A stretch of DNA of 64,000 nt from Flavobacteriales bacterium (lineage in GTDB: Bacteria > Bacteroidota > Bacteroidia > Flavobacteriales > BACL11), in assembly GCA_014239655.1 (NCBI GenBank), contig JAAZYM010000078.1, forward strand, positions 39,564 through 103,563, read 5' to 3'. Position 1 is the first letter of the stretch, and every line of letters starts with the position of its first letter. The notes under the pieces are model-generated. The model was not told where the DNA came from. It did not search any database and saw only the letters and a program-made list of their open reading frames with translations. A program made the translations under genes and the position numbers. This document shows, piece by piece, positions 14,108 to 18,312 of this stretch.

Positions 14108-14845
14108 ATGGGGATTTATCATAACATCTTAAAAAACAAAAAAGAAGGAAAGAAAATATTCGCTATTCTTATTGATCCTGACAAACAAAGTAACGAAGAG
14201 CTATTGTTTAGCATAGAAAATGCTAATCAATCTAATGTAGACTATTTTTTTGTTGGCGGCAGCTTATTAATTTATGATGCTCTTGAGAAATGCATACAAA
14301 CAATTAAAGAAAATAGCAGCATACCTGTTGTTCTTTTCCCAGGGAATACAATGCAAGTTAGTCAAAGTGCAGATGCAATATTATTTCTATCATTAATTTC
14401 AGGGAGAAATCCTGATATGCTAATTGGAAACCAAGTTATAACTGCACCTATACTAAAACAAACTTCTCTTGAAATTATCTCTACCGGATATATACTTGTT
14501 GATAGCGGAAAACCAACCACTGTCTCATATATAAGCAATACAAACCCGATACCATATGAGAAGAACGATATAGCTGCATGTACAGCCATGGCTGGTGAAT
14601 TGTTAGGGCTAAAACTGATATACGCAGATGGTGGAAGTGGAGCCTTAAATCCTATCTCAGCGAAAATGATTCAAGAGATTAGCGAAAATATTAATACTCC
14701 ATTAATAGTTGGTGGCGGTATCTGTAGTGCAGAAAAAGCAATTGAAAATTGTAATGCCGGTGCTGATATAATCGTTGTGGGTAATGCCATTGAAAAAGAC
14801 CCTAAATTAATTAAAGAGATCTCAGAAGCAATCCATTCTATTTAA
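14108..14845 (+). CDS. Geranylgeranylglyceryl/heptaprenylglyceryl phosphate synthase (GGGPS family)
   Basis: LIDPDK, FVGGS, VLFPG, LSLISGRNP, DGGSGA, IVGGGI and GADIIVVGN motifs. Confidence 0.93.
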   Translation: MGIYHNILKNKKEGKKIFAILIDPDKQSNEELLFSIENANQSNVDYFFVGGSLLIYDALEKCIQTIKENSSIPVVLFPGNTMQVSQSADAILFLSLISGRNPDMLIGNQVITAPILKQTSLEIISTGYILVDSGKPTTVSYISNTNPIPYEKNDIAACTAMAGELLGLKLIYADGGSGALNPISAKMIQEISENINTPLIVGGGICSAEKAIENCNAGADIIVVGNAIEKDPKLIKEISEAIHSI

Positions 14846-14854
14846 TTTTCCAAA

Positions 14855-15451
14855 ATGAATGAGGCAATTCAAATTCTACATACAATAACATCTCAAGTCA
14901 GTTTAATTGAATTTTTAGCAGTTTCTTTTAGTATTATATATGTTATACTAGCTGCTAATGGAAATATTTGGTGCTGGCTAGCTGCTATTATTAGCGTTAG
15001 TTTATATGTCTATATATGCTATAATGCAAAATTATATGCAGAAACTATACTTCAAGTATTTTATTTGCTTATGGCGTTTTGGGGTTATTTCTCTTGGAAG
15101 AGCATGAATACAAAGAATACTATACAAGAAATAACATTATCAAGCCATATTCTATTTATATGTTTTGGCGTTGTTTTCACATTCATCAGTGGATATTTAT
15201 TCAGTATTTACTCAGATGCAAAGATGCCTCTAGTTGATTCTTTTACGACAATTTTTAGTCTTATCGCAACCTATATGGTGGTTAAAAGAATACTTTCAAC
15301 CTGGCTTTATTTTATTGTAATTGATATAGTATCGATTTATCTTTATTACTCAAGAGACCTGTATTTTTCTTCGATTTTATTTATAATCTATAGCATAATT
15401 GCTGTTATTGGATATTATAATTGGACTAAAATTCTAGTTAACAATGATTAA
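14855..15451 (+). CDS. pnuC: PnuC-family vitamin/nucleoside transporter
   Basis: NIWCW, LYAE..LQ.FY...GY..W, DSFTT and W...I..D motifs. Confidence 0.9.
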   Translation: MNEAIQILHTITSQVSLIEFLAVSFSIIYVILAANGNIWCWLAAIISVSLYVYICYNAKLYAETILQVFYLLMAFWGYFSWKSMNTKNTIQEITLSSHILFICFGVVFTFISGYLFSIYSDAKMPLVDSFTTIFSLIATYMVVKRILSTWLYFIVIDIVSIYLYYSRDLYFSSILFIIYSIIAVIGYYNWTKILVNND

Positions 15452-15947
15452 AGTAATAATAACAGGCCCTGAATGCTCTGGAAAAACCACATTATGTGAT
15501 AATCTATCAAAACACTTTAATGCAAAAAAAGTGGATGAATATGCAAGAGAATTTCTCAATAAATCTAATAACAATTACAAATACAATGATTTAATTACTA
15601 TTGCTAAAAATCAATATAAAAATGAAAAAAATAATTATCTCGGGAAAATGATTTTTTGTGATACCGATTTAATAACGATTAAAATCTGGTCTGACTATAA
15701 GTACCAGAAATGTGATGATTGGATTACACAAAAAATTAATTCTCAAAAAAAAGAGAAGAGAATCTATATTTTATGTAAACCTGATTTGCCATGGGAATAT
15801 GATCCTCAAAGAAAAAACAAAGATAGTCGTGATGAGCTTTTCAATACTTATAAAAAAGAACTAATAAAAAATCAATATGAATTCTTTGTAATTCAAGGAA
15901 AAAACAGATTTAACAACACTATAAATTATCTGAAAAACATTATATAA
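15444..15947 (+). CDS. NadR-type P-loop kinase/ATPase (AAA_28)
   Basis: Walker A GPECSGKTT, EYAREF, FCDTD and LPWEYDPQR. Confidence 0.85.
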   Translation: MIKVIITGPECSGKTTLCDNLSKHFNAKKVDEYAREFLNKSNNNYKYNDLITIAKNQYKNEKNNYLGKMIFCDTDLITIKIWSDYKYQKCDDWITQKINSQKKEKRIYILCKPDLPWEYDPQRKNKDSRDELFNTYKKELIKNQYEFFVIQGKNRFNNTINYLKNII

Positions 15948-15977
15948 GAAGATTAAATTATCTACTTTTACGCAATC

Positions 15978-16057
15978 TTTTTTTAGGGGTGCCTTCAAAA
16001 CACGGGCTGAGAACATACCCATTGAACCTGGCTAGGTAATTCTAGTAAGGAAAATGC
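15978..16057 (+). ncRNA. TPP (THI-box) riboswitch, variant
   Basis: GGGGTGCC...GGGCTGAGA..ATACCC.TTGAACCTG.CTAG-GTAATT-CTAG..AGGAA lies directly upstream of a TonB receptor. Confidence 0.88.
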
Positions 16058-16116
16058 ATAAGTAGAAGCCGCTATAACCCTAGAAAAGTTTTATTTAAAA
16101 ATTAAAATGATACGTT

Positions 16117-18312
16117 ATGAAAATATCTAATTTCATTCTATTTATAATATGTCTTCCTAGTTTTTCTTTGGCACAAACAACTGATTCTGTAAATATAAAA
16201 AGAACCCTAAACGAAATAAATATAAATGCCATTCGAGCAGATTATACAACTCCAGTTGCATATACAAACTTATCAAAAACTGAAATCGAAAAATCAAACC
16301 TAGGACAAGATTTACCATTCCTTATTTCTCTCTCTCCATCCATAGTAACAACATCTGATGCGGGTGCAGGAATTGGATATACAGGTTTTAGAATAAGAGG
16401 AACGGATCCTTCAAGAATAAATGTTACTATTAATGGAATACCTATTAATGATTCTGAGAGCCAAGGTGTATGGTGGGTAAATATGCCCGATTTTGCATCT
16501 TCTCTTGAAAATATCCAAATACAAAGAGGCGTTGGAACTTCTACAAATGGAGCTGCAGCATTTGGAGCAAGCATAAACTTAAAAACAATGAATATAAATA
16601 ATGATGCTTATGTAGAAACCAATAATAGTATTGGCTCTTTTAACACATTAAAAAACAATATTAAATTTGGATCAGGAGTAATTAGTGATAAGTTTACATT
16701 TGATGCAAGGCTATCAAAAATTATCTCTAATGGATATATTGATCGTGCTTCATCAGATTTAAAATCACTATATCTTCAAGGAACATATTTTAATAAAACA
16801 TCAATACTGAAAGGGATAATTTTCTCAGGGAATGAAAGAACCTATCAAGCCTGGAATGGCGTTCCTCTCCAATATTTAGATACTAATCGGACATTTAACA
16901 GCTATACTTATGAGAATGAAGTTGACAATTATTTTCAGACACATTATCAACTTCACTACAAAAGAAACTTAAACTTAAATACAAATTTGAATGTTGCAGG
17001 TCATTTTACTCATGGTGAAGGATATTATGAACAAGAAAAATTAGATCAGAATCTTTCCAATTACAGTCTCTCAGATATAATTTTTGAAAATGACACAATA
17101 ACATCAACAAACTTAATTAGAAGAAAATGGCTTAACAACGATTTTTGGGGCATCACCTATTCTATAAATCATAAACAAGAAAGAATTAATCTAATTCTTG
17201 GAGGTGCATATAACAGGTATAGTGGGCAACATTATGGAAATATAATATGGTCAGAATTTGCAAGTGACAGTCATTATAATCATGAATACTACAGAAATAT
17301 TTCTACAAAATTTAACAATAATATCTTTATAAAATCTGATTATCGGGCATCAAGAAAGACATCTGTTTTTATTGATCTACAATTAAGAAACATAGACTAC
17401 AAATTTAATGGGAATGATATTGATGGGAATTTAGACGGACAAAATGTAGAATTAGAATTCTTCAATCCAAAATTTGGAATAACACACAAAGTAGATAAGC
17501 ATCAAGCTTTTTATGGATCATACTCGGTTGCAAATAAAGAACCCAATAGGAGTGATTATGTTGAGAGCAGTCCAAATTCAAGACCGTTGCATGAAACCCT
17601 TTATGACACAGAAATTGGCTACAAGTACAAAAATAAGAGGCTAATGTTTAATGCAAATCTATATTATATGGATTATGACAATCAACTTATAAAAACTGGA
17701 GAAATTAATGATGTTGGCTATTTTACAAGTAAAAATGTTAAAAAATCATTTAGACGAGGGATTGAACTAGAGGCGGCTTATTTAATAAGCTCAAGAATAC
17801 ATATCAGTGGAAATCTAACTCTAAGTGAAAATAAATTGGATATTTTAAGACAATTTATTGATAATTGGGATACAGGAATTCAAAACGAAATAGTTCATCA
17901 AAACACTGATCTTGCATTTTCACCAAAAATAATATGGGCAACAAATGTTAACTTTAAACTTAATAACAACACAGATATTAACTTTAATTCAAAATATGTA
18001 GGAGAGCAATTTATTGACAATACATCTTCTACGGAGAGAATGCTTAATGATTATCTAATAAATAATCTGCAGATTAATTATAGCATTAAGAATCCTGTTT
18101 TTAAAATAGCTAAAATCAGTTTGCTAATAAATAATATCTTTAACAACGAATATATCAGTAATGCCTGGCTATATAGGTTCATATCTAATCATTCAGATCC
18201 TAGAGAAAATGATCATTATGTTACTAAGGGTTCAGATAATATTTATAATATGGCTGGTTACTTTCCACAAGCTAAAAGAAACTATCTATTTGGATTAACA
18301 TTAGGATTCTAA
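16117..18312 (+). CDS. TonB-dependent receptor, probably for thiamine or a related compound
   Basis: Plug TSDAGAGIGYTGFRIRG, NGIPINDSESQGVWWVNMPD, QRGVGTSTNGAAAFGAS; C-terminal GYFPQAKRNYLFGLTLGF; riboswitch upstream. Confidence 0.93.
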   Translation: MKISNFILFIICLPSFSLAQTTDSVNIKRTLNEININAIRADYTTPVAYTNLSKTEIEKSNLGQDLPFLISLSPSIVTTSDAGAGIGYTGFRIRGTDPSRINVTINGIPINDSESQGVWWVNMPDFASSLENIQIQRGVGTSTNGAAAFGASINLKTMNINNDAYVETNNSIGSFNTLKNNIKFGSGVISDKFTFDARLSKIISNGYIDRASSDLKSLYLQGTYFNKTSILKGIIFSGNERTYQAWNGVPLQYLDTNRTFNSYTYENEVDNYFQTHYQLHYKRNLNLNTNLNVAGHFTHGEGYYEQEKLDQNLSNYSLSDIIFENDTITSTNLIRRKWLNNDFWGITYSINHKQERINLILGGAYNRYSGQHYGNIIWSEFASDSHYNHEYYRNISTKFNNNIFIKSDYRASRKTSVFIDLQLRNIDYKFNGNDIDGNLDGQNVELEFFNPKFGITHKVDKHQAFYGSYSVANKEPNRSDYVESSPNSRPLHETLYDTEIGYKYKNKRLMFNANLYYMDYDNQLIKTGEINDVGYFTSKNVKKSFRRGIELEAAYLISSRIHISGNLTLSENKLDILRQFIDNWDTGIQNEIVHQNTDLAFSPKIIWATNVNFKLNNNTDINFNSKYVGEQFIDNTSSTERMLNDYLINNLQINYSIKNPVFKIAKISLLINNIFNNEYISNAWLYRFISNHSDPRENDHYVTKGSDNIYNMAGYFPQAKRNYLFGLTLGF

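Follow-up and report, generated by a model that had tools for sequence, protein, structure and literature searches.

A TPP-type riboswitch with a shortened P4–P5 arm upstream of an outer-membrane receptor gene in a small marine flavobacterium

The window analysed here, a stretch of 64,000 nucleotides from a small marine flavobacterium, carries what is by its sequence a TPP-type riboswitch placed before a gene for uptake across the outer membrane, and this riboswitch is a variant that belongs to a known but poorly described kind. We put at about one in two the reading that it is functional and belongs to a TPP-type sub-lineage widespread in Bacteroidia, with its own promoter and a TonB-dependent thiamin receptor as its target, and that it likely acts as an OFF switch reading the thiamin pool. 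What is new here is the defined architecture of the variant, its distribution, its gene associations, its coexistence with canonical copies, its switching helix and its auxotrophic context.

When positions 15850–16200 were searched with Infernal, 15975–16068 of the plus strand aligned to RF00059 over the whole of the model (1–105) with a score of 45.1 bits (E = 7.5e-8 for the 351 bases searched, 7.3e-8 for the whole genome). The score does not reach the gathering score of 54.3 but is far beyond chance, and the element was missed for this reason in a default Rfam scan of the whole window, which returned four tRNAs only. It is the single RF00059-type match in the 1.46 Mb genome (88.5% complete), and the genome-wide search with RF00059 gave the variant and no second, canonical TPP riboswitch. 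The stretch is present in 20 public runs from 12 sea-water studies, and contigs from two independent studies cover the junction with no differing letter across 15984–16158, so that the bases on which the sequence-only reading was built are the same in both. The parts of the element are as follows.

15975..16068 (+): full match to RF00059 (TPP/THI element), from the Infernal alignment
15978..15984 (+): 5' strand of P1, a run of U, common to P1 and to the alternative anti-aptamer helix (Infernal; duplex analysis)
15986..16020 (+): pyrimidine-sensing arm, canonical in the Infernal alignment, with P2 (GGGG 15986–15989 with ACCC 16017–16020), the P3 hairpin and J3-2 (CUGAGA, 16007–16012)
16024..16030 (+): J2-4 and the 5' strand of P4, GAACCUG, in which G16030 corresponds to thiM G60 (from mapping to the Rfam consensus and published passages)
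16031..16035 (+): 5' strand of P5, GCUAG, in which G16031 is the sole nucleotide remaining of the 5' junction and forms a G.U pair with U16046
16036..16041 (+): loop L5, GUAAUU, a loop partly fixed by our search pattern
16042..16046 (+): 3' strand of P5, CUAGU
16047 (+): A facing G16030 (a G.A juxtaposition), in place of the canonical junction strand C77-G78-U79
16048..16050 (+): 3' strand of P4, AGG, pairing with CCU 16027–16029
16051..16056 (+): 3' strand of P1, AAAAUG, making a weak A-U P1 (Infernal alignment)

The sequence-only reading had described a canonical pyrimidine-sensing half joined to an altered P4–P5 arm, and both parts of that description held. The bases are as it gave them (GGGGUGC at 15986–15992, CUGAGA at 16007–16012, ACCC at 16017–16020, GAACCUG at 16024–16030 and G-CUAG-GUAAUU-CUAG-UA-AGG at 16031–16050); GGGGUGC, CUGAGA and ACCC align with high posterior probability, and Infernal, which matches the whole model, puts deletions exactly in both strands of J4/5. 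The reference for the junction comparison was the Rfam consensus CCUgAUccGGuUAAUaCCggCGuAGGGA, standing in for the E. coli thiM string. The arm is 16 nt long, against 18 nt in canonical arms of the same order; each junction strand is one nucleotide shorter and the CG is lost, just as had been claimed, and the pairing of P5 is perfect (C-G, U-A, A-U, G-C). P3a is absent. The RF00059 features retained are the pyrimidine arm, J2-4, P4 (including U59-A80) and G60, whereas C77 and G78 of J5-4 and A61 of J4-5 are deleted or replaced and no CG precedes AGG. The internal loop formed in thiM by A61, C77 and G78 is thus represented by G16030 opposite A16047 and one extra pair, G16031-U16046, after which come four Watson-Crick pairs.

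For the E. coli thiM aptamer, whose structure is PDB 2GDI as cited in passages of bioRxiv 10.1101/2025.01.21.634073, the same passages describe G60 and A61 as coordinating Mg2+ and C77 and G78 as hydrogen-bonding the beta-phosphate. Passages of PMC3764141 place G60, C77 and G78 among the most conserved positions and identify residues 39–43 as the pyrimidine-recognition motif. The phosphate-binding role that the sequence-only reading had given to these thiM residues is backed by these two sources. In the variant the roughly 3 x 3 J4/5 loop, the Mg2+-pyrophosphate pocket of thiM, is collapsed to a G.A juxtaposition and one new pair, and P4 and P5 therefore make up an almost continuous helix.

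These changes are not private to the assembly. A TPP match at E ≤ 0.01 was found in 55 of 61 genomes (the window's own and 60 relatives), with the element kept in 8 of the 9 other searched genomes of the genus and in most of the family. In contrast, the match is above the cut-off in only 11 of the 61, so annotation that relies on riboswitches undercounts thiamin transporters in these bacteria, and standard annotation largely misses the variant because most copies lie under Rfam's cut-off. We read 51 loci of the relatives individually and assigned them to classes by regular-expression patterns: a short arm, with 16 or 17 nt between CCUG and [A/U/G]AGG, is present in 42, the canonical arm of 18–20 nt with CG in six, and three (L047–L049) fit none of the patterns. 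The CUGAGA and ACCC cores occur in every classifiable related locus, both being required by the regular expressions. When all species genomes were searched for a pattern tailored to the short 3' strand, at least 120 of them proved to carry the short arm. Among the matches listed, nearly all are Bacteroidota (Flavobacteriaceae, Saprospiraceae, Chitinophagaceae, Cytophagales, Bacteroidales and Marinilabiliaceae), and those from elsewhere are three Gallionellaceae-type betaproteobacteria and one Verrucomicrobiota cell. In these four (L093, L099, L102 and L056 respectively) the short P4–P5 arm precedes thiC, and the three betaproteobacterial elements have GUGAGA instead of CUGAGA in the pyrimidine sensor. 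The short arm outside Bacteroidota may have arisen independently or been transferred.

The commonest form of the variant is CCUG-GGCRG-GUAAUG-CUGCC-AAGG, and a second form has a bulged G and a UAGG end. Across 103 distinct 16-nt arms, the continuous P4–P5 helix is paired in 88.0% of cells compared with 70.1% in shuffles (none of 500 as high), both sides have changed in 165 cells compared with 43 in shuffles, and no slid register of the helix exceeds 53% pairing. In place of the loop, the new pair (columns 15–30) is GC in 37 arms, CG in 23, AU in 16, GU in 9, UA in 6 and UG in 1, with 11 other or unpaired; it is therefore a standard pair in 92 of the 103, and in 46 of these it has changed on both sides. 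Mismatches at this position (A.A, A.C) are commoner in the family to which the window belongs. Our search pattern fixed the lengths, part of the loop and a W at the last position opposite G60 but left the P5 positions free, so the pairing is not imposed by the search; G60 is opposite A in 90 of the 103 distinct arms, U in 11 and G in 2, a preference for A or U that the pattern partly imposes. GAACCUG and the P4 pairs C-G, C-G and U-A are invariant in all 103 arms, and both were fixed by the pattern. The L5 sequence in 142 loci with 16-nt arms is GUAAUG in 94, GUAAUU in 35 and something else in 13, subject to the same partial fixing of the loop. Both strands of P1 differ between subgroups by eye (UUUUU/AAAAU in place of AAAAA/UUUUU).

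An even sample of 401 genomes from the phylum contains the canonical-length CG pattern in 76 genomes and the variant pattern in 34, all 34 belonging to the window's order or class; controls with reversed patterns gave 1 and 0 matches. Both riboswitch types are present in 16 of the 401 genomes, and in 13 of these 16 the copies lie 15–24 kb apart on one contig. In those genomes (G042, G056, G058 and ten others) the canonical switch is linked to thiS/thiC and the variant to a receptor, and the 15–24 kb spacing suggests that these Flavobacteriales genomes share a longer conserved region devoted to thiamin. One relative (genome G010) has a second variant copy, L035, on the contig that also carries L012, about 98 kb away. 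L035 is mismatched in P5 and altered in L5 (GUAGUU), and precedes a 357-aa ORF without a Pfam match at E ≤ 1e-5; L035 may be a decaying duplicate or a switch acting on a different gene.

Within the window the RF00059 match ends 49 nt upstream of the receptor gene.

16117..18312 (+): TonB-dependent outer-membrane receptor, 731 aa, candidate thiamin receptor (Plug 2.1e-10; TonB_dep_Rec_b-barrel 2e-19)

The sequence-only reading had proposed collecting similar variants with their downstream genes, and these are mostly TonB receptors (70 of 77 among the matches listed). Two loci, L003 and L015, are without a qualifying downstream ORF. The genes downstream of each class are distributed as follows.

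Variant found by pattern, among the matches listed (n = 77): Plug 70, thiS/thiC 5, thiD 1, none 1
Variant in relatives (n = 24): Plug 21, thiS/thiC 0, thiD 0, none 3
Canonical, window's order (n = 4): Plug 0, thiS/thiC 4, thiD 0, none 0
Canonical, phylum sample (26 of 30 loci tested): Plug 12, thiS/thiC 12, thiD 1, none 1

The five thiC-linked variants among the matches listed come from the three betaproteobacteria, the Verrucomicrobiota cell and one Marinilabiliales genome. The canonical junctions before TonB receptors belong to other Bacteroidia families. Because these canonical TonB-linked aptamers have L5 GUAAUK and an A at position 79, as the variant does, the short junction seems to have been derived within a receptor-linked sub-lineage rather than to mark transport control in general. 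We considered the variant as a general signature of transport control and rejected this, given 12 of 26 canonical CG loci before TonB receptors, which means that transport control does not need the variant, and 6 of the 77 listed variants before thiC or thiD.

Two further features flank the aptamer in the leader.

15963..15970 (+): candidate Bacteroidota-type -7 promoter box TACTTTTA, 15 nt before GGGG
16078..16088 (+): anti-aptamer element CCCUAGAAAAG, complementary to 15978–15988 (the 5' strand of P1 and the GGG of P2)

The duplex between 15978–15988 and 16078–16088 has 11 bp and an energy of -13.0 kcal/mol, and none of 300 shuffles is as good. Of 38 related leaders, 27 have a comparable duplex at p ≤ 0.05 (mean z -2.7), in most cases 28–42 nt upstream of the ATG; the relatives have a small variable hairpin past P1 and then the conserved element, which by eye differs between subgroups in step with the 5' strand. 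We compared duplex energies with shuffles because a MAFFT alignment of the leaders misplaced the downstream element between subgroups. With the element blocked, the predicted openness of -20 to +13 rises by 0.11 on average, compared with 0.015 for control segments of equal length, and the element beats its controls in 22 of 26 leaders, in a test that is biased towards this result by construction and uses leaders that are kin. The effect on accessibility in the window's own leader is small (+0.038, compared with -0.011 for 4 controls). Pairing of the downstream element with P5 (CUAG) was rejected as an alternative, as L017 and L019 keep the element by eye though their P5 is CUUGG/CAAGC. Transcription termination was also rejected as the platform: no terminator-like site is present in 15850–16250, and the hairpins that follow P1 are weak by eye.

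A TAnnTTT[G/A] box occurs in 37 of 42 related leaders compared with 6.9 expected from shuffles, and is 12–15 nt before GGGG in 32. We take TAnnTTTG to be the Bacteroidota -7 promoter element, which the TACTTTTA box fits, and the receptor gene is therefore probably a transcription unit with its own promoter. A 151-nt contig from an oligo-dT RNA-Seq sea-water library matches 15971–16121 without difference, from just before P1 to the start codon. Coming from an RNA library, where DNA carry-over is possible, this contig hints that the leader is transcribed.

We infer the direction and level of control from this arrangement. In the absence of ligand, 16078–16088 would pair with 15978–15988, the aptamer would unfold and the A/U-rich start region would be open; with ligand bound, the aptamer would keep its 5' strand, and the element so freed would help to occlude the start region, giving less receptor. 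Because of the conserved anti-aptamer helix and the promoter-like box, the element is probably a live, translational OFF switch. Translational control of this unit is consistent with the behaviour of OMthi in Bacteroides thetaiotaomicron, for which passages of bioRxiv 10.1101/867226 describe an mRNA level that is unaffected by thiamine and a reporter that responds.

The gene content of this organism bears on what the switch could sense. No match to ThiC, ThiE, ThiD or TPK was found in this genome (88.5% complete), and ThiL is present with 302 bits. ThiG gives weak partial matches only, one of which is a GGGP-synthase-family gene. That gene, at 14108–14845 in the window, belongs to the geranylgeranylglyceryl/heptaprenylglyceryl phosphate synthase family (NF003198, 290.7 bits), an archaeal-type ether-lipid enzyme family, and is the source of the weak 'ThiG' match in the genome search. 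Five genomes of the family that are 99–100% complete have ThiL in all five and neither ThiC nor ThiE in any, and TPK was found in none of ten family genomes. With ThiL and without ThiC, ThiE or TPK, thiamin (or TMP) would be imported and TPP made via TMP; since imported thiamin passes through TMP, thiamin, TMP and TPP are all expected in the cell. Two genes upstream of the riboswitch are relevant to this route.

14855..15451 (+): PnuC-family inner-membrane transporter, candidate PnuT (PF04973 4.9e-50; TIGR01528 89.5 bits)
15444..15947 (+): NadR-like small kinase (AAA_28), candidate thiamin kinase (PF13521 3.7e-26)

The kinase gene ends 28 nt before the RF00059 match, and the PnuC-family gene, being upstream, is outside the control of the riboswitch. 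Among 39 TonB-type loci with a qualifying upstream ORF, 29, from several families, have an AAA_28 ORF immediately before the aptamer. This conserved position, the neighbourhood of PnuC-like and NadR-like genes and the presence of ThiL without TPK point to the product of 15444–15947 as a candidate thiamin kinase converting thiamin to TMP. A tie between the variant and salvage through TMP (no TPK) was rejected: TPK is present in 18 of 33 variant genomes, in 0 of 12 with canonical TonB-linked elements and in 0 of 10 of the family. TPK thus does not track the variant, and provides no metabolic correlate of the junction change.

With the pyrimidine arm, J2-4, P4 and L5 canonical, the aminopyrimidine end of thiamin compounds would still be recognised, and an RNA that depends little on the diphosphate would read the pool of thiamin, TMP and TPP rather than TPP alone; this is the ligand range that we infer. 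The residues lost (A61, C77 and G78) are the phosphate and Mg2+ contacts described for thiM in the passages cited above, the cell is expected to contain all three compounds, having ThiL and no TPK, and passages of McCown et al. 2017 (PMC5473149) report that many TPP riboswitches with variant P4–P5 regions bind thiamin, TMP and TPP about equally. Several observations pull the other way. Among the matches listed, short junctions precede thiC in 5 of 77 and thiD in 1 of 77, where a TPP-specific signal would be expected, and canonical CG junctions precede TonB receptors too, in 12 of 26 loci from other Bacteroidia families. Many variants have a G-rich 5' strand beside G60 (CCUG-GGC) that may hold a metal-phosphate; identity with the variants of McCown et al., which are unpublished and without sequences, is assumed; the accessibility effect in the window's own leader is small, and the presence of TPK does not follow the variant. 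The broader proposition, that the loop-less junction marks a 'total thiamin pool' subclass used for uptake by Flavobacteriales and some other Bacteroidia and that a TPP-selective switch is kept for synthesis, often 15–24 kb away in the same genome, we hold at somewhat short of even odds. The variant might alternatively still be TPP-selective, which we regard as a serious possibility although on balance unlikely: pyrophosphate and metals would be held otherwise, perhaps within the major groove where the G.A step and neighbouring purines lie, and affinity or kinetics would be tuned so that uptake is shut off at a TPP level different from that for biosynthesis. This would fit the invariance of G60 (although fixed by the pattern), the extra G residues beside it in the dominant form (CCUG-GGCRG), and control of thiC in 5 of the 77 listed matches. 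It would also fit passages of bioRxiv 10.1101/867226 in which B. thetaiotaomicron reporters for transport genes respond from 100 nM thiamine and the one for biosynthesis from 10 nM, an instance of differently tuned switches in one cell. But both residues that bond the beta-phosphate in the thiM passages are gone, as is A61, which holds one Mg2+, a specific new pocket is made less likely by the nucleotide beside G60, which within the window's family can be G, A, U or C, and the discrimination between the three compounds is reportedly lost in the P4–P5 variants described in the passages of McCown et al. 2017 (PMC5473149).

The sequence-only reading had taken the element for a selected variant class that senses thiamin, TMP or another B1 vitamer. 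The variant class stands, being conserved and covarying, but another vitamer in the sense of a pyrimidine precursor is improbable. Such a ligand, whether HMP, a salvage precursor or a degradation product imported by the receptor, would suit an intact pyrimidine pocket beside a changed distal one, and precursor dependence is frequent in marine bacteria according to the abstract of PMC11452348. However, the genome has no match to ThiC, ThiD or ThiE and the five complete relatives none to ThiC or ThiE, so that a precursor could not be converted to thiamin and sensing it would be without purpose; moreover, the aptamer closes only around a ligand that spans its two arms, and L5 and P4 are still conserved. 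We give very little credence to a decaying, non-functional remnant of a TPP riboswitch or to an assembly error. The score under Rfam's cut-off and the weak P1 of A-U pairs would favour this reading, but the same bases appear in the contigs of two independent studies, and the element is kept in 8 of the 9 other genus genomes searched and in most of the family. Covariation of P5 and the new pair, the alternative helix, the fixed distance of a promoter-like box and the consistent association with genes likewise argue against decay. Selection rather than decay, as had been suggested from the perfect P5 pairing, is well supported by these comparisons: the variant is conserved across the order and beyond, P5 and the new pair covary, a switching helix is present and canonical copies coexist with it in 16 genomes.

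If the pool-reading interpretation is correct, nature would have divided the work of a single riboswitch fold between two specificities. Were the whole pool read, marine flavobacteria would regulate B1 scavenging by a signal other than that used for synthesis, which would bear on models of oceanic B1 limitation and cross-feeding. Replacement of the pocket by a G.A juxtaposition and a new pair also amounts to a natural test of how the two-armed TPP fold can close without the phosphate contacts. The set of variants described here supplies concrete sequences for the still-unpublished study mentioned in 2017.

The window element resembles the TPP riboswitch (RF00059, thiM) in having P1–P5, GGGGUGC...CUGAGA...ACCC, the J2-4 GAACCUG, the A residues of L5, a position in a 5' leader and a thiamin-related regulon. 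It departs from it in that the J4/5 loop (A61, U62/C77, G78) is replaced by one covarying pair with G60 opposite A, in its score of 45.1 bits against the cut-off of 54.3, and in being without P3a. Among regulated systems in Bacteroidota, Costliow and Degnan (PMC5613172) reportedly described in 2017 transport operons of Bacteroides, OMthi and pnuT-tnr3, under TPP riboswitches. The arrangement in the window is like OMthi in that a TPP-type riboswitch directly precedes a TonB-dependent receptor in a member of Bacteroidota. A PnuC-family gene and a NadR-like kinase are syntenic with the receptor here, but both are upstream of the switch, in contrast to the Bacteroides operons, where such genes lie behind it. 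A further difference is that neither the window's genome (88.5% complete) nor any of 10 relatives gave a TPK match. In passages of bioRxiv 10.1101/867226, the B. thetaiotaomicron transport genes appear to be controlled in translation, their mRNA level staying constant; that preprint uses neither the word aptamer nor the word junction.

The HMP-PP riboswitch (thiS motif), described in passages of Atilho et al. 2019 (PMC6478431) as a small thiS-linked aptamer that sits within an intrinsic terminator, provides a second comparison. Unlike that class as described there, the window element has the full TPP fold, is without a terminator and precedes a receptor gene; the two are alike as diversified forms of thiamin-pathway sensing, the HMP-PP class being a natural riboswitch with a ligand other than TPP. 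The closest likeness is to the variants of McCown et al. 2017, which are given as 'in prep.' and whose sequences, taxa and genes are absent from the main text (PMC5473149). Among papers outside subscription journals, our search found none that describes the present junction or follows up that study. The main text states that the variants occur in many bacteria, sometimes alongside canonical ones in one genome, and our variant is like them in its altered P4–P5 region, in being numerous and spread over many bacteria, and in coexisting with canonical copies, in relatives rather than in the window's genome. The binding of thiamin, TMP and TPP was reported there for their variants, and identity between those and the window's variant is assumed. 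The ligand range proposed in the sequence-only reading is plausible, and agrees with this existing but undocumented claim from the Breaker laboratory.
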